Shown: positions 7,094 through 45,677 of the stretch, in pieces
Numbering within the stretch: position 1 is the stretch's first letter
Layout: each line of letters begins with the position of its first letter
NCBI GenBank assembly: GCA_013152945.1
Contig: JAADFL010000158.1
Coordinates: forward strand, 399 to 64,398
Source: Deltaproteobacteria bacterium
GTDB lineage: Bacteria > Myxococcota_A > JAADFL01
Direction: 5' to 3'
Length of the DNA: 64,000 nucleotides
The notes under the pieces: generated by a model
What the model was told of the DNA's origin: nothing
The model's database searches: none
Seen by the model: the letters and a program-made list of their open reading frames with translations, nothing else
Program-made: the position numbers and the translations under genes

Positions 7094-8779
7094 ATGAATA
7101 AGGCGGCAAGACTCAAGAGGAGCCTGCGAAAACGCAACAAGGGCCAGGCCATGGTGCTTGCTGCGGTAAGCATGCTGATCCTGGCTCTCGGCATACTCGT
7201 GACGGTGAACCTTGGCCATGCTGTTCACCAGAGGATCAGGCTGCAGAATGCCGCAGATGCGGGTGCGTACTCGCTTGCAGCAATGGAGGCAAGGACTTTC
7301 AATTACTTTGCCTTCACTAACAGGGCACAGGTGGTGAACTACAATGCCATGATGACATTGAACGCATACATCGCACTGCTGACAAGGGCGGAATCGATGT
7401 TCGGTGTTGCGTCCGACAACATGTACTACATACACACTTATTTATGTTGGTTGTGCAGGGTCGGATGCAAGCCTCCCATAACTACGTTCGGTTGCTGGGC
7501 CTGCCCGTTGAAGAGTGTCGTTGCCGGACTGGGAAATGCTGCCAGGGCTGTTGCAAACGGGTTTGGAGCCATGTTGAACGTGGCGGATCCCGCCCTGGCC
7601 ATGCTTGTCTCTTTGTCCTCCATGGCAAACTATGTGGGTACGTTCACTTCCCAGTACGTCATGGGATCGGCGGTCTTGAGCCACATAGCAGACTCCATGA
7701 AGAGCATAACGAGCAAGGACAGCGAGGAAGTGGATTTCAATGCGTTCCAGATGCTGGTCGGTGCATATAACTACAACGAATACAAAAAGGCCTTTGACCC
7801 GGCAGTGGGCTCCCCTCCGGCCTGGCCGAGAGGCTGGACCCCGCCGGCAAGCGATTCGAATGTGAAAAAAGCAAAGAGGGTCATGGCGGAAATTGTCAAT
7901 GCCACGCGGTATCCTGCAAACCACCTGACATGGCAGACCATTCCGGGTTTCGCCTTCTCTGCTTCATGGATAGGCGGCCAGACAAAGCTTATAGACGAGG
8001 CAAAGTTCAATCCGTCCACGGACTTGAGAGGAAAGTACATCGGCCCCGGCCCGGGCTGGGGGGTAAGGGACACCAGGACAAAGGCCCAGGATGAATCCAA
8101 GCTGAGTCCCGGAGATACGCTGGCAAGCGACTCGTGGTACAGGTTTTCCCTCCCTGCGCCGGGCGGTTTCAATGCAGGAACCATGTATTCCCTGTACGTG
8201 GTTGCGAGTCACGATAAGAACAAGAGGAGACATCTTAGGTGGAAGGCACACACGTTCAACCAGGCAGCTTGTAACTATACCTACGGCATGATACAGGTCG
8301 GTCATTTCGGGCTTGCAAAAGACCCGCATCCAAAGGCAGGTTCGAATGACGATATAGATACGCGCCATGCATTCCAGGGCATAACGCCCTTCATGAAGTT
8401 CGCTGCACTGGCCGATGCAAAGCAGGACTTTCACCAGCCGAGTGCGTACGTGATGCTGAACAAGAAGCCGGAAAAGCTGAAGAGGATCTTTACAAAGAAA
8501 TTTAACTACAGGACAGGCGCAGGCTCTTCAACCAAGGTGGACATGAACATAGGAAGGAAAGGACTCATGGGTACGGGCGCTTTCAAGGGCTTGACGTCCC
8601 TGTCCAGGGCCATGGCGTACTACCACAGGCCGGGTGACTGGCAGGAACAGCCCAATTTTTTCAACCCGTTCTGGCGGGCAAAGCTGGCGCCGCTAGCAAC
8701 AGACAAGGAACTGGCCGGGCTCTTGGGCTCGGTTCCGGGCCTGGGAAACCTGCTGAAAGACAACCTATTGCTCCATTGA
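7094..8779 (+). CDS. Tad-domain (TadG-like) large minor pilin, putative pilus tip protein
   Basis: KG|QAMVLAAVSML hydrophobic helix, RLQNAADAGAYS, C-terminal YYHRPGDWQEQPNFFNPFWRAKL. Confidence 0.85.
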   Translation: MNKAARLKRSLRKRNKGQAMVLAAVSMLILALGILVTVNLGHAVHQRIRLQNAADAGAYSLAAMEARTFNYFAFTNRAQVVNYNAMMTLNAYIALLTRAESMFGVASDNMYYIHTYLCWLCRVGCKPPITTFGCWACPLKSVVAGLGNAARAVANGFGAMLNVADPALAMLVSLSSMANYVGTFTSQYVMGSAVLSHIADSMKSITSKDSEEVDFNAFQMLVGAYNYNEYKKAFDPAVGSPPAWPRGWTPPASDSNVKKAKRVMAEIVNATRYPANHLTWQTIPGFAFSASWIGGQTKLIDEAKFNPSTDLRGKYIGPGPGWGVRDTRTKAQDESKLSPGDTLASDSWYRFSLPAPGGFNAGTMYSLYVVASHDKNKRRHLRWKAHTFNQAACNYTYGMIQVGHFGLAKDPHPKAGSNDDIDTRHAFQGITPFMKFAALADAKQDFHQPSAYVMLNKKPEKLKRIFTKKFNYRTGAGSSTKVDMNIGRKGLMGTGAFKGLTSLSRAMAYYHRPGDWQEQPNFFNPFWRAKLAPLATDKELAGLLGSVPGLGNLLKDNLLLH

Positions 8780-8813: not shown

Positions 8814-9998
8814 ATGAAAAGGCGGCAGGAAAAACAAGAACCCGGTATTGGGCGAATTTTCCCGCCACGGCTCTGTACCGCCGTGTATACAGGAATTGTT
8901 CGCGTATCCAGGCGGTTTTCCTGCAGGGACCATGGTCGATCGAAGGTGCGTGCTCCTTTGGTCCGGGGCAGCGCTGTGACAGAAATGGCCCTTCTCTCGA
9001 TCGTGCTGGTTCCTGCATTGCTTTATGCAGTGTACTTTTTCGATATCATACACGTGATGCTCAAGGTCCAGGAAGCGGCCAGATATGCTGTATGGGAGTT
9101 CACGGGGTATAATCTGCACGATTACAATTCCAGCAAGGGCAAAGGTCACAAGGCAAAGTTCGACTCGGCCAAGTCTGCAATAGAGCAGGATGTAAAAGAT
9201 AGGTTCGCAAACCTGGTCTCAACAGACAAGGAGGCAAAAAGCAAGTCCAAGAAGCTGGCCATAGACTGGAATCTAAGCAAGGTGGACATTTCGTCTTCAA
9301 AGATTCCGGTGGTTTCCAAGAACCTGGCCGACGTGTTTCAAAACAACGGCGGAGGTGCTGGCTTTGGTCAGGTGCTGGACAGATTCAACATGGGAATGAA
9401 CAAAATTCTTCAGGACCAGATGAACTTCAATTCCGGGGGCCAGGTTACAGCCAAGATTACTATTCAGGCCAGGGCTACGATTTTTCCGCAGAGGTACTTG
9501 AGCAGGCAGTGGGGCCTTGCTGATTCTATGCTTCCGAGGAAACTTGCAAGGCTGGATTTCACAGAGGATGTTACGCTTGTGGCGGATTCGTGGAAGCTCT
9601 TCGATGGTTCCAACTATGTGACGGCAGGCAAGGGTAAAGATGATCAGAGCAACAAGACGTACTTCAACCAGCTTAAAAACGTGGCCTTTTTCGGACTCGA
9701 GGCAGGTCTGACAAACCAGATGCAGCAGGCCTTGGCCGTGATGGATACCAACCATATACCAAACCCGTGGACCGTGGTGCTTCGTTCCAGGGCCTACAAG
9801 GGAGGAGACCACAATTCAGGCAGGTTCAAATTCAAATCAGGGTACTATTCCGGCGACATAGACGGAGGTATAGACACATACAACACGAGTCCCATGGAAG
9901 ACGGCCCGGGCCAGAGCGAGTACATGAAGACATTCGACAAGCGGGGTGATTATTACATGGGATGCAAGAGCGCAGGAGAAAAGGAATGCTCCTTTTAA
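8814..9998 (+). CDS. TadE-family minor pilin
   Basis: RG|SAVTEMALLSIVLVP then KVQEAARYAVWE; true start may be downstream of 8814. Confidence 0.82.
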   Translation: MKRRQEKQEPGIGRIFPPRLCTAVYTGIVRVSRRFSCRDHGRSKVRAPLVRGSAVTEMALLSIVLVPALLYAVYFFDIIHVMLKVQEAARYAVWEFTGYNLHDYNSSKGKGHKAKFDSAKSAIEQDVKDRFANLVSTDKEAKSKSKKLAIDWNLSKVDISSSKIPVVSKNLADVFQNNGGGAGFGQVLDRFNMGMNKILQDQMNFNSGGQVTAKITIQARATIFPQRYLSRQWGLADSMLPRKLARLDFTEDVTLVADSWKLFDGSNYVTAGKGKDDQSNKTYFNQLKNVAFFGLEAGLTNQMQQALAVMDTNHIPNPWTVVLRSRAYKGGDHNSGRFKFKSGYYSGDIDGGIDTYNTSPMEDGPGQSEYMKTFDKRGDYYMGCKSAGEKECSF

Positions 9999-34379: not shown

Positions 34380-36554
34380 TTGAATTACAACATATTCAAC
34401 AGGACACGGAGGCTTGGGAAAATCTTGCACCGCGAGTATTCTAACGGACAATTGCGGAACCCGGGTTCAATCCTTGCCTCGTTGTTGTTTCTAATGCTCG
34501 CGGATGTCGTAGTGACATCTGAATGCCCGTTGATTGAATTTTCCTTCAACTATGGATTTCACTTGCATTCCAACCCAAGATCCCTGCTGTTGTTTATTCA
34601 GCATCCTTCGGTATCGGCCCTGGAATTCGGACTTTTCCTGCTTGCAGGCCTGCTCTGGATTACGTGGGCGGCTTTCGTATCATGGATGTCAAGACATCTA
34701 AAATTAATCAAGGGGCATCCTGTCTTGTTCAATATGCTCCAATTATTCATACCAATCGCGACAATCCTCGGTTTTTTCTTTAGGCAGGACGGTTACACTA
34801 CAAACTATTGGCCTGCCTGGTCCTTGTTGTTCGGCCTGGCCCTGTCGGTTTTCTCAATCATCCTTTCTACTGTTGGAAACAGGATTCCGTCCGGCGGCGC
34901 AAATACCATCCAGGCTTTCATGTTGCTCCTGCTGTCATTGATTGTCCTTTGGCCTGTTGCAGGATTCAGGGCCGGCCAGTACGTGGCGCCCAGGGCTCTT
35001 GCATGTGTCTTAGCCCTGGTCCTGGCATATTCGGGAATAGATTCACTGGTCGCAGGCATTCGACCGCATTTCATTGAAATTCAACCCGGATTTCTGCTCA
35101 AGGTGATAACACCGTGCTTGCTGATTCTGATCGCTATCGGCCTGGGCCCCTTGAAAGATCCGGGAGCAAGGGCATCAATCCTTACCCGTACCATGGTGGG
35201 TCAACGACTTGCCGATCTCTTTGCCTTTGTTGCTGGCTGCCGCCAGGAACGACTCGAGGACGATACCTGCCACTGGCTAGGAAAGAGCGGGATAAAGGGC
35301 GGGATAAAGGGCGGGATAAAGGGCGGGATAAAGAGCGGGATAAAGAGCGGGATAAAAAAAAATAAAAAAGGGATGCTGGACAACGGGCCCGGGAACATGG
35401 GATCAGGCAATTACGAGCAGCAGGAAGAAATCGCAGGGATCCTGCTCGTCAGCATCGATGCATTGAGACATGATAGGATGTCAGGCGGAACAGCCACGGC
35501 AAGGTACCTGAAAAGCTTGGCGGAACGTTGCATAAATTTTACCAGGACTTACGCATATTTTCCCAATACCATTGGATCTTTAATGTCTCTTACCAGGATG
35601 AAGCCGCTTGTAGATTACACGAAGATCGAGGATTTTGGGGAAAGGGGCGGGGGAAAAAACGCCAGTATCTTTGAACTGCTGGACAAGGAAGGCTTCGTAA
35701 CTGCCGGTGCTTTTCCAATGAAGTACTTTACTCCAGACTCTCCTGTCCTGAAGGGCATGGAGGAATTGCAATTGGCACCGGGATTCGACATCAGGCCGGG
35801 AGAATCATCCCATGCACCGTGGCAGGTCAAAAAAGCCTTGTCCGACATCCGCAATATTGCTGAATCCGGGAATAAGTTCCTGTATTGGGTCCATTTGTAC
35901 GAGCCTCACTATGGATACGTTGTCCACCATGATTTTTCCTATGGTAACCGTTTGGCACAGAGGTACGATTCAGAGGTTGCATATTCGGATTCGAATCTGA
36001 AGAATCTCATTAAGGGTATCGAAGATTTGCACCTGGTAAAAAGGACCGTGATCGCGGTTTTCGCAGACCACGGAGAGGAACTCTTCGACCATGGAGGACA
36101 GTTTCACGGCAAGAGTCTGTACGAGGAAGAAATTCGTGTACCCATGGTCATGTGCCTTCCCGGTCTCGGCCACAAAAGCATCGAGACTCCTGTATCATTG
36201 TTGTCTCTGTTTCCCACAATTCTAGACTTTATGGGCATTGGTATTCATCGCGATGTGGATATCATTGCGGGATCCTTGCTTCCACTCGTTCTGGATATAT
36301 CTTCTCCGGGTTTGAAAAGGCCGGCCTGCATTGTGTCCTATTGCTACAACGCGCCTGTACTGAACGCAGGCGGCGCGTCTTTCGCTGCTGTACGCGACCG
36401 GTACAAGCTGGTCGTTCATCACAGGTTTGCAGGCAGGGAACTGTACGACCTTCAGGAAGATCCGAAAGAAAGGGAAAATCTCGCAGGACGTGGCCTTGAT
36501 GTGGAAAACAAATTGTTCGGCTGCCTCATGGATTTTCTCGGGAGGCAGCAATAA
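34380..36554 (+). CDS. Membrane-anchored sulfatase-like hydrolase/transferase (alkaline phosphatase superfamily)
   Basis: Multi-TM N-terminus; ILLVSIDALRHD, WVHLYEPH, FADHGEE, HGKSLYEEEIRVP, ELYDLQEDPKERENL; start uncertain. Confidence 0.85.
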   Translation: MNYNIFNRTRRLGKILHREYSNGQLRNPGSILASLLFLMLADVVVTSECPLIEFSFNYGFHLHSNPRSLLLFIQHPSVSALEFGLFLLAGLLWITWAAFVSWMSRHLKLIKGHPVLFNMLQLFIPIATILGFFFRQDGYTTNYWPAWSLLFGLALSVFSIILSTVGNRIPSGGANTIQAFMLLLLSLIVLWPVAGFRAGQYVAPRALACVLALVLAYSGIDSLVAGIRPHFIEIQPGFLLKVITPCLLILIAIGLGPLKDPGARASILTRTMVGQRLADLFAFVAGCRQERLEDDTCHWLGKSGIKGGIKGGIKGGIKSGIKSGIKKNKKGMLDNGPGNMGSGNYEQQEEIAGILLVSIDALRHDRMSGGTATARYLKSLAERCINFTRTYAYFPNTIGSLMSLTRMKPLVDYTKIEDFGERGGGKNASIFELLDKEGFVTAGAFPMKYFTPDSPVLKGMEELQLAPGFDIRPGESSHAPWQVKKALSDIRNIAESGNKFLYWVHLYEPHYGYVVHHDFSYGNRLAQRYDSEVAYSDSNLKNLIKGIEDLHLVKRTVIAVFADHGEELFDHGGQFHGKSLYEEEIRVPMVMCLPGLGHKSIETPVSLLSLFPTILDFMGIGIHRDVDIIAGSLLPLVLDISSPGLKRPACIVSYCYNAPVLNAGGASFAAVRDRYKLVVHHRFAGRELYDLQEDPKERENLAGRGLDVENKLFGCLMDFLGRQQ
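35286..35357 (+). repeat. 12-bp in-frame tandem repeat x6 (RGCGGGATAAAR)
   Basis: Encodes SGIK-GGIK-GGIK-GGIK-SGIK-SGIK between the TM and catalytic domains. Confidence 0.95.
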
Positions 36555-36787: not shown

Positions 36788-39481
36788 ATGGTTAACTTCG
36801 ATAAATTGACGATAAAGGCAAGAGAGGCCCTGGCGACCGCACAGGATTTGGCACGTGCCAGGGGACATCAGGCACTCGAGCCCGAGCACCTTCTTCTGGC
36901 GCTTATTGGTCAGCCTGATGGAGTCGTGCCCGGTCTTCTCGGCAAACTTGGATCCGACGCCGGGAACATCAGGTCCGACCTGGAATCGTACCTCGACAGG
37001 CAGCCCAAGGTTAGCGGCGGAGAACTCTATCTGGACAACCGTACCAGATCGGCAATCGAAAAGGCTCAAAAAGAGGCCGACCGAATGAAGGACGAGTACG
37101 TCTCCACCGAGCACCTGTTCCTGGGGGTGTTCGAGTCAGGGGGCGCGGCAGGTACGGCCCTGAAGAACGCAGGAGTAACAAAAGACAGGCTGTTTGCTGT
37201 TTTAAAAGACGTGAGGGGAGGCACCCGGATAACCGACGAAAACCCGGAAGGAAAGTACGAGGCATTGAAAAAATACGGGCGTGACCTTACCGAAGAGGCA
37301 AGAAAGGGAAAACTCGATCCTGTGATAGGCAGGGATGAAGAGCAGAGGAGGGTTATGCAGGTCCTGTCCAGGAGGACCAAGAATAACCCTGTATTGATAG
37401 GCGATCCCGGGGTGGGCAAAACAGCCGTGGTCGAGGGCCTGGCCGGAAGAATAGTCGATGGTGACGTGCCCGAACCTCTGAAAGACAAGAAACTCATTGC
37501 ACTGGATCTCGGTGCATTGATAGCAGGCGCAAAGTACAGGGGAGAATTCGAAGACAGGCTCAAGGCTGTTCTCAAGGAAATCCGGGCTGCAGAGGGTAAT
37601 ATCATACTGTTCATCGACGAGATGCACACCCTGGTCGGCGCAGGCAGTGCAGAAGGCGCTATTGATGCAGCCAACCTGCTGAAACCCATGCTCGCAAGGG
37701 GAGAGCTTCACTGCATCGGCGCCACTACGCTCGACGAGTACAGGAAGTACGTTGAAAAGGACGCGGCACTGGAGCGCAGATTTCAGCCGGTCCCCATAGG
37801 CGAGCCCACAGTGGAAGACACCATATCCATCCTACGGGGCCTAAAGGAGCGGTACGAAGTCCACCACGGCGTGAGAATACGCGACGAAGCCCTGGTTTCG
37901 GCTGCAACCTTGTCGAATAGGTACATCACGGACAGGTTCCTGCCGGACAAGGCTATCGACCTTGTCGACGAGGCAGCGAGCAGGCTTAGGATGCAGATAG
38001 ACTCGATGCCGGTCGAGATAGACGAGCTTATTAGGAAGAAGACTCAGCTCGAGATGGAGAAAACCGCGCTCAAGAAAGAGCGGGGAAAGAAATCAAAGGA
38101 CAGGCTCGCCAAGCTGGAAAAGGAAATAGCCGACCTGACAGAGAAGATGGACGGTCTGACAGCTTTGTGGCAGAAGGAAAAAGAACTTATTGGTTCCGTA
38201 AGGGACATCAAGGCTCAAATCGAAGCGGCCAGATCGGAACAGGAAAGGGCATTGAGGCAAGGCGACTATGACAAGGCCTCGGAACTCAAGTTCGGAACCA
38301 TAGTCAGGCTGGAGCAGGAACTCAAGGATAACAGAAGCAAGCTCGAATCGCTCCAGTCGGAAAACAGGATGCTCAAGGAAGAAGTCGAGGCTGAAGATAT
38401 AGCCGAAGTGGTTGCCAAGTGGACCAACATCCCTGTGTCCAAACTGCTGGAAGGCGAAGTGGAAAAGCTCCTGAACATGGAGGAACAGCTCCAAAAAAGG
38501 GTTATCGGCCAGGATGAGGCGTTGAAGGTGGTTGCTTCCACGGTCCGCAGGGCCAGGGCCGGAATCCAGGATCCAAACCGGCCCCTTGGCAGCTTCATCT
38601 TTCTCGGTCCCACAGGGGTGGGAAAGACCGAGACCGCCCGTGCGTTGGCGGATTTCCTGTTCGATGACGAGCGGGCCATGATTAGGCTGGACATGAGTGA
38701 ATTCATGGAAAAGCATGCAACGGCCAGGCTCATCGGTGCGCCGCCGGGTTATGTCGGTTACGAGGAAGGCGGGTACCTTACTGAAGCAGTGCGCCGAAAA
38801 CCTTACTCTGTTGTACTGCTGGACGAAATAGAAAAGGCTCATCCGGATGTGTTCAACGTGCTTCTGCAGATACTCGATGACGGCAGGCTTACAGACGGCA
38901 AAGGAAGGACGGTGGATTTCAGGAACACCATTGTGATCATGACCAGCAACCTGGCAGGCCGTGAAATATACGATGCGGCCAGGCTTGGAAACAACCAGGC
39001 CGACATCAAGGAACAGGCGGTCGAGGCGTTGAAGGCGCATTTCAGGCCGGAGTTCCTGAATAGGGTTGATGATGTAATATTGTACAGGCCGCTCAAAAAG
39101 CAGGATCTCGTGAGAATTGTAGACCTGCAAATGGAGCAACTAAGACACAGGTTGGAGGAACGGAGAATCAGAATCGAGCTTACTGAAAAGGCAAAGGAAT
39201 TTATTTCTGATGCAGGTTGGGATCCGGCATTCGGCGCAAGGCCCTTGAGGCGGGCCATCGAAAGGTTGGTCCAGGATCCCCTGGCGGTGAAATTACTGAA
39301 AGGCGACATACAGGAAGGCTCCCACGTAAGAGTAGACCGTTCAGGAGACAATCTCGTGTTCGAGATCGAGGCCCAGGACCTTGATGAATCAAGTAACGGC
39401 GATAATCATGATGATCGTGACATGGATGAAACTTCGGCAGAAGAAGAGGAAGAGGTTGTACAAGGCGAAATCGTGGAGTGA
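36788..39481 (+). CDS. clpB: ATP-dependent chaperone ClpB
   Basis: Clp N domain, two AAA+ modules ([16 protein letters not shown]), coiled-coil M domain, [13 protein letters not shown]. Confidence 0.97.
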
Positions 39482-39542: not shown

Positions 39543-40925
39543 TTAGTAGGTATATCCGTACCTCTTCAAGAGTTCGGGGTAGGGCATGGTCCTGACCTCT
39601 TCCTTGATGCCTTCCTTTTCTCCTTCCTTTGGAGGCCTGCCCGGACAAACCCATGTCACATCCGGAGGCTGGGAGGCCTTTGCATAAGTGTCTTTCAGGA
39701 TCTTACGATCCTCAGCCGTAAGGGTACGCAGTTGTTGGTAAGATACGCTTTTAAGGTCTCCCAACCTGGTGATCACCTTTGCGATGACTTTTTCCACGTC
39801 GAATACCGGACCGGAGGCGCCGTTCGTAACCGTACCATCCAGTTGCTCGTAGTTTCCGTATCCCTTGGCCCAACCTCCCGCCTTGTTGTTTTTTCCTTCT
39901 TTCTTTATCTTTTCTGTTTGAGGTTCGACTGCGAGTTCGTCTTTCAATAGAGGGTAACGCATGGCTCCATCTTTAAAAATTCTGCCCTGATCATCCCTCA
40001 AGCCCGTTTTGAGTGAAAAAGGAAATTCCTTGGCCGTAAGCGGTTCCTTGAACATCTTGTTTGCCTTGAGAGTGAGGAGGACGCCCTTTTCAATAGTATA
40101 GTCATTGAAACAACGAACCGGAAAATCCACGCTGGGCTCAAGTGTCAACTTGTTGTACATGCCGAGAAGAAAGTTGACATCCGCCATGGACAAATTTTTT
40201 GCATCATCAAGGGTGAACGGCCGCCCCGAAAGGCTCTCGACAAATCCAGCCAATGTGACCGCCGGAAGGAGTGCTCCGTTTTTCTTAACCCTTGGATCTG
40301 CATAACGTCCAATATGAAAGCCTGCTTTCGGCATATCAAGAATAGCCTCTTTCCTGCCGTCCTCTGTTCCCCTCGGCAGAGTAACCTTGAACTTTCCCGT
40401 AAAACCTTCCGGTTTGTTTTTCTTTCCCCAGACCTTGCCCGGGGTGTTGAGTTGCTTGAAATCCTGCCTTGCCGCCTTTTGTGCAAGCCAAACGAGAAAA
40501 TTATAATCTACTGCATAAAGATCGCCGACCATCTTTGGGGTGGGATTTTTCTTGCCTGCCAATTCGTACAGCAGCCCGGTTATGTAATACAATTTTTTTG
40601 CCCTCGGGTTCTTTTTTACATCAGGATTGATGACGTACCTGGCCTCCTCGTTCACCCTTGGAATACGCATTATACCGGTATTACCGTCTTTGGTTCCTAT
40701 GGGCAGTATGAATCTCACGGCTATGCCGGGATCCTTTGCCTCGAGTTTCTTGATCTCGCTCTTGGTCAGGATGATCTTATCGAAGGGCTGTTCTTGATTT
40801 TTGTTGCTGCATCCTGCGAGCAACAAGAGTATTGTCGTGTACATGCTGATAGACAAGATAATTGAGAACCGATTACGCGATATCAGAACTTTTTTCAAGC
40901 TTTTTTCACCGTGCATGTATATCAT
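39543..40925 (-). CDS. Lipoprotein with three tandem phage/CIS tail-assembly-chaperone-like domains
   Basis: GGAGG RBS; lipobox LLAG|C39; three related repeats at about aa 70-150, 179-272 and 300-428. Confidence 0.7.
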   Translation of the reverse strand: MIYMHGEKSLKKVLISRNRFSIILSISMYTTILLLLAGCSNKNQEQPFDKIILTKSEIKKLEAKDPGIAVRFILPIGTKDGNTGIMRIPRVNEEARYVINPDVKKNPRAKKLYYITGLLYELAGKKNPTPKMVGDLYAVDYNFLVWLAQKAARQDFKQLNTPGKVWGKKNKPEGFTGKFKVTLPRGTEDGRKEAILDMPKAGFHIGRYADPRVKKNGALLPAVTLAGFVESLSGRPFTLDDAKNLSMADVNFLLGMYNKLTLEPSVDFPVRCFNDYTIEKGVLLTLKANKMFKEPLTAKEFPFSLKTGLRDDQGRIFKDGAMRYPLLKDELAVEPQTEKIKKEGKNNKAGGWAKGYGNYEQLDGTVTNGASGPVFDVEKVIAKVITRLGDLKSVSYQQLRTLTAEDRKILKDTYAKASQPPDVTWVCPGRPPKEGEKEGIKEEVRTMPYPELLKRYGYTY

Positions 40926-41034
40926 CTTAATCCTCCCTGGGCTAAAAAAGGATAATGCTTGATTGTTTTCTTAACACAATGACATTGTTGACTCAAGGTA
41001 ATGATTCGCGCCACAATCCCGGGGTGGAGGTCAA

Positions 41035-42924
41035 ATGTCCCAGGAAAAAATACATGACTCGTCCGCAAGCTCCATGTTTACGCTGGCGCTTATACTGATA
41101 TTTACGTTTCTCTCGTTATCGTCGTCAGGGCTTGGTTGCAGTTTGGCAGCAACAAGGCAGGACCTGCATTCCAAAAACGGGAAAGATTCGGCTGATAAGG
41201 CTGCGTCCGAAAACCCAACCGACTATGAGTCACCTGAAATGTTGCCCAATCCCAGGGCCTATTCCCATTATTTAAGGTCAAGACTTTTTGATCTGGACGG
41301 AAAGCCGGACCCGGCGATAAGAGAAATGAAAACAGCGCTCCTATACGATGACAGAGCAGCCCTGCATGTTGCGCTTGGCAGGTTGTACTGGAAGAAAGGC
41401 GATGATAAAAAGGCACTCGAAGAAGCAGGCCTGGCAATTTCCAGGGACCCAAACTACCCGGAAGCATTCAGGCTGTTGGCTGACTGCAACAGGGACCTCA
41501 AGGAATTCGCAAAAGCGGTGAAGGATTATGAAACAGCACTTGATTTGACGATTAGGCGAATTGAAAATTTAAAAAACTGCTCATGTAAGGCCACGCCCGG
41601 AAACGGCACATGTGCCGAATCATGTCAACTTGCAAATTCCTTGTTCTTCGATCTCGGCAGATTGCACATGGTTCTTTCCGGCTTCAATGAGGCCGAAAAG
41701 GTTTACAAGAGGTGGGCAAATTTCAGCCCTGAAAGGTCGGAACCCAGGTTCCAGCTCGGACGGCTTGCAGAAGAAAAGAAGGATTTCGATGCGGCTGAAA
41801 AATGGTATCAAGAGGCACTGGATGCGGATCCGTATGATTCCATGGCCTTCACGGCATTGGCCTCCCTGCTCGAAAGAAAAAAAGAATACAAAAAGGCTAT
41901 TGAACTATATCTGGACAACCTCCAGAGAGGAGGAGATGAAGTCCAAACCAAGTTACACATCGGCGAGCTTTATTTGAAGCTTAAGGATAACAAAAATTCA
42001 AATGCCTATTTCGAGGACGCGGCGAGCTCGATGCCGGGATCGAGCAACATCAGGTTCAAGATAGGCGCAATCCTTTACGACTCGGGCCTCTTCGAGAAGG
42101 CCGAGCAGGAATTCAGGAAAGGTTTGGCTCTGACGGCAAACGACTACAAGGGCCGGTACTTGTTGGCGTTGACACTGTACCAGATAGGAAGATTCAGCGA
42201 TGCGCTCAAGGAGGTTTCCAAGATAGACAAGTCCGCAGGTGACGTGTACATCGATTCAGTACGGCTGCAGGCGGAACTTCTTCGCAGGTCGGAAAGATCC
42301 CGTGAAGCAGTCGAGTTGCTGGTCCCGGTATACGAAGAACACAAAACAAACGTGGATGTCGCATCAGACCTTGCAATGGCATTGTTCGACCTGGGGAAAA
42401 CAGATGAGGCCCTGAAAAAGATTGAAAGGCTTATGAGCCTTCCATCATTGGAACGTGACGACCTTCGATCCTTGAGCTTCACATACTCCATCCTCCTGGA
42501 GCGGGCGGGAAAGAAAGCAAAGAGTCTGGCCCTCCTGAAGAAGCTCCTCGCCCAGTCGCCGGACGACCCTGTTGCCTTGAATTTCCTAGGTTACACATTG
42601 GCGGAACGCGGCCAGGACCTGGACAAGGCCGAAGAATTGATTCGCAAGGCTTTGGAGAAGAAGCCGGAAAGCGGATATATAATTGACAGCCTGGGATGGG
42701 TATTGTTCAAAAAGGGCAAATTGGAACGAGCTCTCCAAACCTTCGAGGAGGCGGACAGAAAGGCCCCGCGAAACCCGGAAATCCTGGAACATATTGCGGC
42801 ATGTAAGCTTGCACAGGGAAAAAAGTCAGAAGCGGCGAAGATATTGAAAAAGGCGTTGAAGTTCTGGCCCGAGCCGTTTGTCAGGACCAGGATAAAGTCA
42901 AAGCTCAAGGAACTTGTACATTGA
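41035..42924 (+). CDS. Tetratricopeptide repeat lipoprotein
   Basis: Lipobox-like GLGC; many TPRs; ALNFLGYTLAE and YIIDSLGWVLFK motifs typical of the TPR protein encoded next to lolB. Confidence 0.85.
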   Translation: MSQEKIHDSSASSMFTLALILIFTFLSLSSSGLGCSLAATRQDLHSKNGKDSADKAASENPTDYESPEMLPNPRAYSHYLRSRLFDLDGKPDPAIREMKTALLYDDRAALHVALGRLYWKKGDDKKALEEAGLAISRDPNYPEAFRLLADCNRDLKEFAKAVKDYETALDLTIRRIENLKNCSCKATPGNGTCAESCQLANSLFFDLGRLHMVLSGFNEAEKVYKRWANFSPERSEPRFQLGRLAEEKKDFDAAEKWYQEALDADPYDSMAFTALASLLERKKEYKKAIELYLDNLQRGGDEVQTKLHIGELYLKLKDNKNSNAYFEDAASSMPGSSNIRFKIGAILYDSGLFEKAEQEFRKGLALTANDYKGRYLLALTLYQIGRFSDALKEVSKIDKSAGDVYIDSVRLQAELLRRSERSREAVELLVPVYEEHKTNVDVASDLAMALFDLGKTDEALKKIERLMSLPSLERDDLRSLSFTYSILLERAGKKAKSLALLKKLLAQSPDDPVALNFLGYTLAERGQDLDKAEELIRKALEKKPESGYIIDSLGWVLFKKGKLERALQTFEEADRKAPRNPEILEHIAACKLAQGKKSEAAKILKKALKFWPEPFVRTRIKSKLKELVH

Positions 42925-43697
42925 AACACAAACCTGCAGCCAGGATGATGATAGTGATATCATGCATTATTTGCATGGGATGCTCCGGGGTCCAGGTAAG
43001 TCAAAACAGGGATGTCCCGGCTTCCCGGGTCGACTTGGCCAAGGCCCTCGAAGCCCGCCGACTGGCAATACAAACGCTGTGGGCCAGGGCCTCGGTGCAG
43101 AGAACCAAGTTGAACAGGAGACGCAGGATAGTGGTAAAAATCTGGGTCCAACGCCCGGATCATATCCGTATGGAGGCCACGGGGCCCCTGAATCAGGCTA
43201 TAGGGGTCCTTGTCGCACATGACGGATTTTTCCAGATGCTCTCGGCTGAAGAGGGCGTGCTGTACGAAGGCCCTGCGACTTCGAACAACATGGCCCGGTT
43301 GTTCGGACTGGCTGTACAACCCCCGCAGATAATCGATATTCTGCTCGCCCAGGCCCCGTCCCCAAAGGGGGAGGTATCAAGGGATTCGAACGGCCTGTTT
43401 CGATACCGGGAAAGGCTCGGATCCAATCTAATCGAAGTATGGTTGGACCCCAAAAACATGTGCATGAAGAAGGCTATGTTCCTTGATTTTGAATCCAAGC
43501 CCTTTTACGAGGCCGAGGTGACTTCTTTTTATTCGGTACAGGGCAGGAACATACCCAAGAGACTCTCTTGCAGGGCTTTTCAAGACGATGATGTTGTAAA
43601 GATAAAAGTTCGGAAGGCCAAGCTGAATATGTCCTTTCCACCAGGCACGTTTCAAATCGAGCAGCCCGAGGGCGTACGCATCGAGGAAGTTCCTTGA
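42921..43697 (+). CDS. LolB-like/DUF4292 outer-membrane lipoprotein
   Basis: Lipobox CMG|C; VQRPDHIRMEATGP; LolA/LolB-like ending FPPGTFQIEQPEG. Confidence 0.7.
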   Translation: MKHKPAARMMIVISCIICMGCSGVQVSQNRDVPASRVDLAKALEARRLAIQTLWARASVQRTKLNRRRRIVVKIWVQRPDHIRMEATGPLNQAIGVLVAHDGFFQMLSAEEGVLYEGPATSNNMARLFGLAVQPPQIIDILLAQAPSPKGEVSRDSNGLFRYRERLGSNLIEVWLDPKNMCMKKAMFLDFESKPFYEAEVTSFYSVQGRNIPKRLSCRAFQDDDVVKIKVRKAKLNMSFPPGTFQIEQPEGVRIEEVP

Positions 43698-43749: not shown

Positions 43750-44463
43750 ATGGCACATCAATTGTCTGCACCGAAGGAGCCATGCTTTCAGGGAGCTGTC
43801 GAGTTGAAATCGAAAAAAAACAGGATCAAAAAGCTTCCCAAAGCGTCAGTGCATATAGAGGACCTGTCCGGGATGGAGGACGAGGACCTACTGGAGATGT
43901 TCGTGCGAGGAGAACAACTGGCTTTCAACGTGCTGTTGGCCAGGTACAAGCGGCCGTTGATGGGTTTCATATTTCGCTTTCTCCAGGATAGGGAGGCGAG
44001 TGAGGACATATTCCAGGAGACATATCTGAAAATCATTAAGAATGCCGCCACGTTCAAGGGGCAAAGCAGGTTCAAGACATGGTTGTTCAAGATAGCCAGG
44101 AACCTTTGTATCGACAGGCTGAGGCATCTCGGGGTGCTTACCATGGTGTCTGCGGACCAGCCTTTATCAGGAGATGACGGTGCATCCATCCTGGACAGGC
44201 TTCAAAGTCCTGCAATGGGTCCCTTGGACGAGGTCGAGCAGCATAATTTGGTATCAAGGATAGAGGCTGTCCTTACTGATGTTCCCATTGAACAAAGGGA
44301 GGTATTTATTTTAAGGGCGGTCCTGGATATGCCGTTTGCAGAGATAGCGCATGTAACGGGTGTTTCGGAAAACACTGTTAAAAGCAGGATGAGGTACGCC
44401 ATGGAAGGCTTGCGTAAGAGGCTTGCCGATTTGGGCGCCCAATCCGCTTCGGAGGCAAGGTGA
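43750..44463 (+). CDS. ECF RNA polymerase sigma factor
   Basis: SEDIFQETYL, FKTWLFKIARNLCIDRLR, EIAHVTGVSENTVKSRMRYA; true start may be further downstream. Confidence 0.93.
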   Translation: MAHQLSAPKEPCFQGAVELKSKKNRIKKLPKASVHIEDLSGMEDEDLLEMFVRGEQLAFNVLLARYKRPLMGFIFRFLQDREASEDIFQETYLKIIKNAATFKGQSRFKTWLFKIARNLCIDRLRHLGVLTMVSADQPLSGDDGASILDRLQSPAMGPLDEVEQHNLVSRIEAVLTDVPIEQREVFILRAVLDMPFAEIAHVTGVSENTVKSRMRYAMEGLRKRLADLGAQSASEAR

Positions 44464-45677
44464 GCGACTGCAGCCGATTCAGGGACCTGATGGTCGAGAA
44501 GTTATACGGAGAACTCGACCCGCGGGACCAGGAGGCATTGTCCTTACATTTAGCTGTATGCGAAGACTGCGAAAAAGCCTGGACTGATTTTTCAGCCATA
44601 CGCGATGCTTCTTCCAGGCTCGTTCAACCCGAACCGCAGGATGGTACTGTTTCTTTTCTTCTTGAGCAGGCGGGAGCCGAAACAAAAGCAATCAATAACC
44701 GGCGATATCGGACATATTTCAGGAAGGTAACGCTGTCCGGCCTCGCACTTGCAGCAGGTGCACTGCTTGTGTACGGCGTGACCGGCAAGCTCCTTTCCGG
44801 CGCGGTTCAACCATCCCGGGAACCGGCGCGAAAATGGGCGACCTCGATTAAGACAGCGCAAGAAAAAGCGGTAAAGAAAGCCGAAGCAGAAAAGATACAT
44901 ACGGTACAGAATGTGCTGAATGAACGAACGGCTGTTGTTGGACCAAAAAAGAAAGAACAAGCGGCGGGCAAAGGTGGGATTTCCATAGGAGGCGAAATCG
45001 AAAGTCGCACAATAGCCAGTGTCAAAAGCGGCAAGCTTGTTTCCAAAGGGGTGTTCGAACCTGAAAAGAAAAGAAAATACAAAACAAGGACCGGGAGAAC
45101 AGGCAATAAGCCAAGAGCATCTACGAGATCAAGGGCGACAAGGAGAAAAATTCTACTTGAGAGACCGGCACCAAAGGCTGAAAACAAGGCCAAGAGCAGG
45201 CCAAAAAAAAATATCGACAAGACACTTTCTCTGGCAGTGAAAGAGTCAGAACCGGCGGTGTCCAGGGGGGCTGCGATGCCTCCGGCAGCCCCAAGTATGA
45301 CACCTGCTGCAGCAAGCGGGATCAAACGGGACGAAGAGACTACCGGAACAGCCAGGTACAGAAGGAAGAGAAGAAGGAATGCGCCCGTGTCAGCCGACCG
45401 AGAGCAAGCTGAAGAGGGCTTTCTTGGAACAGATTATTCAAACCTGTTGTCCATGGCAAGAAAGGCCGGGAAATCAGGTGATTACGAAAAGGCTCTATCC
45501 TTGTACTTGAAAGCGCTTGGTGGGCTTGAAGGTAAAGACGAGGAGGACGCGTACTTCGAAGCTGCAACCTGCGCCCTGAAATTGAAGAAAAAAAGCCAGG
45601 CAAAGAGACTGTTGAACAACATGGTGAAGAAATTTCCGGAATCCGGAAAAAGGGCCAAATCACTTGGAATAGAGTAG
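44460..45677 (+). CDS. Zinc-binding (zf-HC2) anti-sigma factor with TM helix and C-terminal TPR
   Basis: HxxxCxxC (HLAVCEDC), TM helix, basic low-complexity linker, TPR; overlaps the sigma stop. Confidence 0.88.
   Translation: MSDCSRFRDLMVEKLYGELDPRDQEALSLHLAVCEDCEKAWTDFSAIRDASSRLVQPEPQDGTVSFLLEQAGAETKAINNRRYRTYFRKVTLSGLALAAGALLVYGVTGKLLSGAVQPSREPARKWATSIKTAQEKAVKKAEAEKIHTVQNVLNERTAVVGPKKKEQAAGKGGISIGGEIESRTIASVKSGKLVSKGVFEPEKKRKYKTRTGRTGNKPRASTRSRATRRKILLERPAPKAENKAKSRPKKNIDKTLSLAVKESEPAVSRGAAMPPAAPSMTPAAASGIKRDEETTGTARYRRKRRRNAPVSADREQAEEGFLGTDYSNLLSMARKAGKSGDYEKALSLYLKALGGLEGKDEEDAYFEAATCALKLKKKSQAKRLLNNMVKKFPESGKRAKSLGIE

Follow-up and report, generated by a model that had tools for sequence, protein, structure and literature searches.

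Three diverged copies of a tail-assembly-chaperone-like domain in a predicted lipoprotein from a deltaproteobacterial genome with no detectable contractile machine

Introduction

Tail assembly chaperones (TACs) keep the long, aggregation-prone tape-measure protein (TMP) extended and soluble, as established for gpG/GT of phage lambda; the −1 frameshift of the G/GT type, also established for lambda, is a hallmark of these proteins. To our knowledge, TACs have been described solely as helpers in the cytoplasm, discarded in the course of tail assembly. Here, we describe a gene from a Deltaproteobacteria bacterium that combines three TAC-like domains with a predicted lipoprotein signal. It lies at 39543..40925 on the minus strand of the stretch of DNA analyzed here (the window: 64,000 nucleotides [nt], positions 399 to 64,398 of contig JAADFL010000158.1, assembly GCA_013152945.1) and encodes a protein of 460 amino acids (aa) plus stop, which we refer to as P0001. 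Two orthologues, P0002 and P0003, share 54 to 56% identity with it.

The domain repeated in P0001 is the same as that of a small TAC-like protein of extracellular contractile injection systems (eCIS; ~120 aa, phrog_508, without a Pfam family), whose consensus is recognizable in all three P0001 repeats. The canonical eCIS protein is acidic (median net charge of −6, range −9 to 0, n = 31) and consists of one domain without a signal peptide; its sequence closes with C-P-x-C, it has a −1 frameshift extension, and it is encoded between tube and presumed tape-measure genes. In contrast, P0001 has three domains, a lipoprotein signal, and a conserved insert and tail, without the extension and without surrounding tail genes. 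Moreover, in place of CxxC it has only one Cys after R2 (C272) and one after R3 (C427), and a disulfide may have replaced the zinc site after export. According to the dbeCIS survey, lineage II of these systems includes subtype-specific genes that were left without a known domain (PMC6899500).

Tandem TAC-like domains also occur in hub assembly chaperones of the T4 gp26 type (PF12322, phrog_150; two domains in ~260 aa), which are the best structural neighbors of the full-length P0001 model. These are cytoplasmic phage proteins with two CxxC motifs, whereas P0001 has a third domain and is predicted to be exported. The designation of gp26 as a hub assembly chaperone is taken from Table 2 of a T4 tail review (PMC3004832). 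Among solved structures, the best match to the model of the second repeat is the HK97 TAC 2ob9, of the lambda gpG/GT type, although the two show no sequence similarity (13 to 14% identity) and the HK97 protein functions in cytoplasmic tail assembly.

Outside the cytoplasmic membrane, a lipid anchor combined with tandem repeat domains is a feature that P0001 would share with Ltp of Streptococcus thermophilus phage TP-J34, which differs in being prophage-encoded, in acting in a Gram-positive host, and in having an experimentally shown function. The fold of the Ltp repeats is not known to be related to that of the TAC-like domain. Ltp is described as a lipid-anchored protein with repeat domains that excludes phages via the incoming TMP (PMC3952083). 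Lastly, two database proteins, P0008 and P0006, resemble P0001 in having an extracytoplasmic anchor followed by tandem TAC-like domains; unlike P0001, they are acidic and lack the R3 insert, the C-terminal tail, and the extra Cys residues.

Results

A triplicated TAC-like domain

Profile and pairwise comparisons confirm that P0001 is built of three diverged copies of one domain (R1, R2, and R3), which a first, sequence-only reading of the window had proposed from its motifs. A 9-domain hidden Markov model (HMM), built from domain instances of other proteins with none from the P0001-P0003 family, matched R1 at residues 69 to 149 (24.8 bits), R2 at 177 to 268 (22.5 bits), and R3 in two parts, at 298 to 337 (22.0 bits) and 372 to 420 (29.4 bits); the match pattern was identical in P0002 and P0003. 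A second HMM, built from 31 single-domain eCIS proteins alone, was run against the genome's 50,245 six-frame open reading frames (ORFs) of 50 aa or more. P0001 was its sole match (full E of 4.8e-23), and the match spanned R1, R2, and both halves of R3. In BLASTP, R1 and R2 are 29% identical over 78 aa (pairwise E of 2e-6), with z scores of 8 to 10 over 100 shuffles. Pairwise comparison of R1 or R2 with R3 showed no significant similarity (z of 0.2 to 1.0). Against single-domain proteins, R3 scores z values of 15.5 to 19.3, and a single eCIS protein, P0123, matches R1, R2, and R3 with z values of 8.5, 9.1, and 15.5, respectively.

The three copies differ in how much of the domain they have kept. 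R1 (aa 65 to 158; 40452..40733, minus strand) is R2-like by HMMs and pairwise scores and is basic in all three orthologues. R2 (aa 173 to 275; 40101..40409, minus strand), delimited by HMMs and by its predicted structure, ends at the invariant Cys272 and lacks the MR and DE motifs. R3 (aa 295 to 430; 39636..40043, minus strand), which ends at the invariant Cys427, is the best-preserved copy and retains MR, DEL, and VITRLGDL. It also matches phrog_508 when taken alone (E of 1.3e-7), in addition to its support from HMMs and z scores; among the Pfam TAC families, it yields only a weak match, to Gp41_Mu (E of 0.22).

R3 carries an insert, seen as a gap in the HMM match, that contains GWAKGYGNYE.LDGT and stands where the DPRV..N loop would be. 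The sequence-only reading had noticed it and estimated about 40 aa; its length is nearer 34 (aa 338 to 371; 39813..39914, minus strand). Sixteen of its 34 positions are invariant in the three sequences, and it has low confidence in the structural model. Behind R3, a C-terminal tail (aa 431 to 460; 39546..39635, minus strand) has a conserved ...ELLKRYGY end, with 16 of 30 positions invariant.

Standard family libraries largely miss this architecture. Pfam returned no families for the whole of P0001 at E ≤ 10, so that PF12322 (T4_baseplate) was not reached either, and NCBIfam returned only noise. In PHROGs, the whole protein matches phrog_508, "tail assembly chaperone" (E of 6.1e-7). Matches to Cas6 in NCBIfam and PADLOC were rejected, as they reach 15 bits and cover residues 7 to 102, signal peptide included.

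An export signal ahead of the repeats

A Shine-Dalgarno sequence, GGGAGGA (40931..40937, minus strand), read from the sequence, lies 6 nt 5′ of the ATG at 40925. We therefore take M1 as the start, which results in a signal peptide of 38 residues; together with the lipobox LLAG/C39, it occupies 40809..40925 (minus strand). As translated, a basic n-region (K8, K11, K12, R17, and R19) is followed by a hydrophobic h-region and then by the lipobox, to which the canonical rule of a motif ending in Cys was applied. The Cys and the Gly at −1 are invariant in the three sequences; the two orthologues also keep Leu at −3 and have Pro at −2 (LLPG/C). The genome has one match to LspA (PF01252; E of 2.8e-38) and two to Lgt (PF01790; best E of 2.3e-59), all above the Pfam cut-offs. 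At the level of sequence, P0001 thus carries an export and lipidation signal, and the protein is probably lipidated. Both the lipobox and every motif string quoted in the sequence-only reading are present in the 460-aa translation.

The G+C content is 0.46 to 0.49 over the gene and 0.50 to 0.55 in the flanks. Recent transfer was considered as the cause of this dip and rejected, since the dip is modest and the conserved synteny described below contradicts it.

Structural neighbors

The AlphaFold model of R2, made with 116 sequences, has a predicted local distance difference test score (pLDDT) of 87.5 and a predicted template modeling score (pTM) of 0.76. Its top Foldseek match in PDB is the HK97 TAC 2ob9 (probability of 0.97, template modeling score of 0.56), at an E of 0.069 and with no matches at E ≤ 1e-3. 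VIA, which is independent of Foldseek, placed YqbN 3klu first (Z of 6.5; root mean square deviation of 3.8 over 88 residues), followed by 2ob9 (Z of 5.7; 4.0 over 86 residues) and 3fgx (Z of 5.7), with the next row at 4.5; by the calibration of the tool, these Z values are middling and below the level that is safe for a shared fold. Against BFVD, the R2 model has three matches at E ≤ 1e-3, including rows named "baseplate protein" and T4-like "baseplate hub assembly protein". The best viral matches are T4-like hub assembly proteins (E of 2.7e-5 to 6.8e-4), and weaker rows are TAC-named, one of them Mu FS-gp41.

For full-length P0001, the model reaches a pLDDT of 68.3 and a pTM of 0.71, with the insert and linkers below a pLDDT of 50. 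Its neighbors in BFVD are two-domain T4-like hub proteins (eight matches at E ≤ 1e-3, best 4.9e-9), and those in the ESM Atlas agree. As modeled, then, the fold of R2 matches that of tail assembly chaperones. The three domains are predicted to share one order of secondary-structure elements.

The search for a tail machine

The genome is 4.84 Mb in 218 contigs and 94.27% complete, and its closest relatives in our collection are at the phylum level. It shows no detectable contractile machine. Namely, the Pfam sheath, tube, and gp25 families have no matches in it, and neither do HMMs for tube, cap, gp25, and TMP derived from 12 eCIS loci; the sheath HMM reached a best E of 0.37. Weak matches of the eCIS CIS_tube/LysM and spike HMMs were rejected, as they correspond to a LysM domain and to a partial match of 41 residues. 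The HMM of the DUF6760-like extension, which is introduced below, found nothing among 109,812 six-frame genome segments (best E of 3.6), whereas four of four control loci matched at 3.7e-22 or better. With phrog_508 and the domain HMMs, the P0001 gene was the sole match, so the genome has no second TAC domain. The sequence-only reading had seen no tail genes in the window, and the same holds for the scanned neighbors and for the genome as a whole. Likewise, no tail genes were found among the ORFs scanned within 10 kb on either side of the orthologue in L004, a metagenome contig with much higher G+C content.

A probable G/GT-type chaperone gene in eCIS operons

The profile of the repeats gathered 338 proteins at E ≤ 1e-3, mostly of ~120 aa. 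Among the matches listed, none of 120 has a precomputed Pfam domain, and one was named "phage tail assembly protein" by its source. Their single-domain consensus is F.LPRGY.D..G..HREGVMRLATA.DE....DPRV..N...LLARVITRLG...L...DLA.LQ..Y..IN, with a nearly invariant C-P-x-C at the end. The motif pattern given in the sequence-only reading is the consensus of a real and widespread eCIS family of ~120 aa, encoded between genes for the tube and the presumed tape measure in 12 of 12 contractile-injection operons sampled. When one genome per species was scanned, at least 597 loci with the domain turned up, in bacteria and archaea.

To describe their context, 135 same-strand ORFs were annotated from 12 spread loci. 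A sheath is encoded in all 12 loci, a Pvc16-like cap in 11, and a gp19-like tube in 10 (ORFs were mispicked in two high-GC loci). The domain gene comes directly after a tube gene; in most of the 12 loci, a second tube gene follows and then an ORF of 458 to 1788 aa without Pfam families, which from its position and size only is presumed to encode the tape measure. Genes for CIS_tube/LysM, VgrG-like, gp25, and PAAR proteins are found downstream in the sampled loci. A sequence search of PDB with the domain profile returned nothing credible (best E of 0.021, to a TALE repeat).

The 3′ end of the domain gene is overlapped by a conserved DUF6760-like peptide (eCIS loci L005 to L084; at ~8300 to 8560 where the match starts at 8001). 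A strict regular expression applied to the 80 loci assigned this peptide to the −1 frame 58 times, to frame 0 once, and never to the +1 frame, and it missed 21 loci; in the 4 missed loci that were checked by HMM, the peptide was in the −1 frame every time. The −1 frame stays open past the stop codon in all 58 loci. The conserved part has no ATG, GTG, or TTG ahead of it in 23 of these and no ATG in 47, and an XXXYYYZ slippery heptamer falls within the overlap in 29. In L011, the reading of a 186-aa ORF as the domain and DUF6760 fused in frame was rejected, as this ORF is the overlapping −1 frame. Taken together, the unnamed small gene of many eCIS operons looks like a G/GT-type chaperone gene with a −1-frame extension, Pfam DUF6760. 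The same arrangement upstream of a tape-measure gene is described in the TP-J34 report (PMC3952083). No mention of "DUF6760" was found in the literature searched, which lies mostly outside subscription journals. Both the location of the gene and its frameshift hallmark suggest that the domain family originally bound the TMP.

A small family with anchored relatives

When 1.84 billion cluster representatives were searched exhaustively with P0001 by phmmer, eight proteins were returned at E ≤ 1e-3. One is the orthologue P0002, with 56% identity. Three others (P0004, P0007, and P0009; ~260 aa) are T4_baseplate/phrog_150 proteins that match PF12322 at 41 to 53 bits (cut-off of 24.5) and align to P0001 residues ~171 to 336, that is, R2 and the start of R3. 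The matches also include the two-domain protein P0005, the single-domain protein P0010 (135 aa), P0006 (an N-terminal transmembrane [TM] helix and three domains, 417 aa), and P0008 (a lipobox and two domains, 243 aa). The known family comprises P0001 and its two orthologues, three sequences among ~15 billion; the contig of P0003 is 2.7 kb long. A domain-profile search for longer homologues returned P0001 to P0003 alone, which is weak evidence by the tool's own grading.

Further searches added no members. Neither P0001 nor P0006 matched any of 50,697 phage records by tblastn. An alignment-based pattern search gave 591 metagenome and 27 genome contig pattern matches, none of which encodes a relative, and a search of viral contigs with P0011 recovered no locus. 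In addition, the PADLOC-DB 2.0 defense models gave nothing real for P0001 and nothing for P0002, P0003, P0005, P0006, P0008, or P0010; this library dates from 2023, and therefore a newer system would be missing from its models.

Both orthologues keep the full length, the lipobox Cys, the three-domain pattern, the insert, and the tail. Cys272, after R2, and Cys427, after R3, are invariant in the three sequences. Conservation is even along the mature protein, with 41 to 57% of positions invariant across the domains, insert, and tail, which suggests that P0001 is held under even purifying selection. The net charge of mature P0001 is +21 (pI of 9.55), and those of the orthologues are −5 and 0.

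The first domain of P0008 pairs with R2 (z of 18.5) and the second with R3 (z of 9.6 to 13.9). Because of these pairings and the likeness of R1 to R2, P0001 looks like an exported two-domain core (R2-R3) to which an extra copy (R1) was later added. P0006 aligns collinearly with P0001 in MAFFT (24% identity). Despite this, positional orthology of its three domains with R1, R2, and R3 was rejected, since the score matrix has no diagonal; the triplication in P0006 therefore looks independent.

Undescribed membrane-anchored tandem-TAC proteins are thus of two types, known from database entries only: P0006, P0011, and P0012, with a TM helix and three domains (417 aa, acidic), and P0008 and P0013, with a lipobox and two domains (243 aa). 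The families of P0006 and P0008 are sporadic, with clusters of 1 to 3 members. The full-text literature, in which few subscription journals were covered, yielded no account of a TAC-domain protein that is exported or lipidated. The sequence-only reading knew of no described protein with the architecture of P0001; this stands for the literature, whereas in databases the arrangement is not unique, as P0008 and P0006 demonstrate.

Genomic context

In the window, the P0001 gene lies tail-to-tail with clpB (36788..39481, plus strand). On its other side, a divergent operon begins with a TPR protein that has a lipobox-like N terminus (…SSGLG/C; 41035..42924, plus strand) and continues with a 258-aa lipoprotein (…ICMG/C; 42921..43697, plus strand), an extracytoplasmic function (ECF) sigma factor (43750-44463), and a zf-HC2 anti-sigma factor (44460-45677; the pair spans 43750..45677, plus strand). 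The clpB and TPR flanks are as the sequence-only reading had named them. Its LolB-like label for the second gene of the operon is plausible, with matches near or below threshold: LolA_like, DUF4292, or LolB matched in three of five proteins scanned (the 258-aa protein and homologues), all below the Pfam cut-offs except DUF4292, at 23.1 bits against a cut-off of 23. A sequence search of PDB with this neighbor returned nothing. Judging from the lipobox-like N termini of the TPR and 258-aa proteins, three lipoproteins may surround the single ECF sigma/anti-sigma pair.

Other neighbors include GlcDEF-like oxidase subunits, glycine-cleavage genes after the anti-sigma factor, and a sulfatase-type membrane protein (34380-36554, plus strand). 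The gene of the latter contains a 12-nt tandem repeat at 35282-35356 (6.2 copies, 96% matches), which encodes GIKG/GIKS peptides between the membrane part and the sulfatase domain.

L004 has the same order and orientations of clpB, the P0001 gene, the TPR gene, the 258-aa lipoprotein gene, and the ECF sigma and anti-sigma genes. Identities between the encoded proteins of the two loci are 77% for ClpB, 56% for P0001, 47% for the TPR protein, 40% for the lipoprotein, 48% for the sigma factor, and 59% for the start of the anti-sigma factor. The divergent control region, common to the P0001 gene and the TPR operon, is 109 bp long (40926..41034, no strand assigned) and has a 107-bp counterpart in L004. 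Within it, an 11-bp element, GTTGACTCAAG (40987..40997, plus strand), is identical in L004 (~9931-9941), at offsets of 41 and 40 in the two divergent regions. The element includes the palindrome TTGA-N-TCAA and can also be read as −35-like hexamers placed back to back; it could serve as an operator or consist of overlapping −35 boxes of divergent promoters. Its use as a regulon marker was rejected, as the genome holds five copies where ~2.3 would be expected. None of the other module-bearing loci contains its 9-mer core. No ECF-type promoter (simple pattern of GAAC-like, 14 to 19 nt, CGT-like) was found on either strand of the divergent region in either locus.

The operon is more widespread than the P0001 gene. 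Of 40 same-phylum genomes, 19 have the 258-aa lipoprotein and none has the P0001 gene. The 1,836 six-frame ORFs of the 19 module-bearing loci include no TAC-like domain (best E of 0.61). For example, L097, from genome G010, has the TPR/lipoprotein/sigma module without the P0001 gene. Divergent from that module, in the position held by the P0001 gene in the window, lies a candidate gene for a BamD-like TPR lipoprotein (10463-11851 of L097, plus strand). This label comes from reading the translation, and it points to an outer-membrane-biogenesis neighborhood. By these comparisons, the P0001 gene is a lineage-specific addition beside an older neighborhood for outer-membrane biogenesis and envelope stress, apparently inherited vertically since.

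Discussion

The sequence-only reading held that a TAC domain had moved to the cell envelope. As far as sequence goes, this holds: all three repeats are homologous, the Cys of the lipoprotein signal is invariant in the orthologues, and the modeled fold of R2 is TAC-like as well. Several scenarios may be considered for what the relocated protein does.

We tentatively propose, at somewhat less than an even chance, that P0001 is an envelope holdase or scaffold tied to the adjacent TPR/lipoprotein/ECF module. Under this scenario, three TAC domains were exapted, R2 and R3 forming a two-domain core like that of the T4 gp26-type hub chaperones and P0008, and R1 being an additional copy of the R2 type. 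The protein would no longer take part in tail assembly, being exported and lipid-anchored and having lost the CxxC knuckle and the −1-frame extension. Instead, it would act as a nonenzymatic periplasmic holdase or scaffold that binds an extended or helical stretch of one of the cell's own envelope proteins. It would also cooperate with the operon for the TPR protein, the LolA/LolB-like lipoprotein, the ECF sigma factor, and the anti-sigma factor, or share its regulation. The holdase part is drawn by analogy with the action of TACs on TMPs. We favor it over other functions because synteny is stable, a control element is shared, purifying selection is even, and there is no defense-island, prophage, or PADLOC signal. 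A number of observations weigh against it. Synteny is based on a single comparison, that of the window with L004, and GTTGACTCAAG may be no more than the −35 box of the promoter for the TPR operon. Since the module exists without the P0001 gene (L097; 19/40 versus 0/40 genomes), this gene is an add-on rather than an obligatory part. The Pro at −2 of the lipobox in both orthologues is atypical, and a charge that is not conserved among orthologues would be odd for one fixed endogenous client. Finally, the anchored multidomain forms P0006 and P0008, together with the tiny family size, would also fit an accessory or defense role.

Such a defense role could take the form of a tape-measure decoy, in which lipid-anchored TAC domains in the periplasm bind the TMP ejected by a long-tailed phage, a tailocin, or an eCIS and thereby block the channel and the entry of DNA or effectors. 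We rate this main rival as less probable, although it is mechanistically attractive and has several points in its favor: the ancestral ligand of the domain, by position and frameshift hallmark, would be the tape measure; the predicted location of P0001 is where tape measures emerge; anchored multidomain forms seem to have arisen more than once, in tiny sporadic families; and surface charge differs strongly among orthologues, as expected with changing targets. Ltp sets a precedent for a lipid anchor with repeats that target the TMP (PMC3952083). By extension, P0001 may be a host-encoded "chaperone mimic", a fixed chromosomal form of superinfection exclusion derived from the invader's own assembly factor, with the P0006 and P0008 types as further members; this, too, we regard as rather improbable. 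The gene lies outside any prophage or defense island, among housekeeping and envelope genes in conserved order, and has no PADLOC match. R2 has lost the MR and DE motifs. Moreover, canonical TAC domains are acidic (median of −6, n = 31), whereas the family of P0001 to P0003 is neutral to strongly basic. A nonconserved, partly basic charge cuts both ways.

It is much harder to see P0001 as helping to assemble or dock a prophage tail or a contractile injection system of the cell itself; a docking factor for such an injection machine was one of the roles suggested in the sequence-only reading. The genes of such a machine would have to lie in the unassembled part of the genome, for which an assembly of 218 contigs at 94.27% completeness leaves room. 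Yet no sheath, tube, cap, gp25, TMP-like protein, extension, or second TAC domain was detected with either Pfam families or eCIS HMMs, and the ORFs scanned in the 10 kb to each side of the orthologous gene in L004 include no tail genes. Canonical TACs do their work in the cytoplasm, before export, whereas P0001 has a signal peptide. The docking role is thus very unlikely. Still less credible is a decaying remnant of a phage or eCIS chaperone with a fortuitously hydrophobic N terminus and no present function. Pfam finds nothing in P0001 and the G+C content dips modestly, as a remnant would allow; however, the 460-aa frame is intact behind a strong Shine-Dalgarno sequence, two full-length orthologues keep the lipobox Cys, both further Cys residues, the insert, and the tail, and conservation is even across regions and accompanied by conserved gene order. 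We assign the remaining probability to functions outside these scenarios.

In P0001, a TAC domain is triplicated, predicted to be exported and lipid-anchored, and found beside outer-membrane-biogenesis and envelope-stress genes in a genome without a detectable tail machine. A by-product of this analysis is the recognition that a small gene of eCIS operons looks like that of a G/GT-type chaperone with a DUF6760 extension. If P0001 binds endogenous clients, as in the holdase or scaffold scenario that we favor, it would add a new type to the periplasmic holdases. Should its ligands be tape measures instead, it would represent a new defense principle and provide a reagent for studying the passage of tape measures across the envelope, a poorly understood step.

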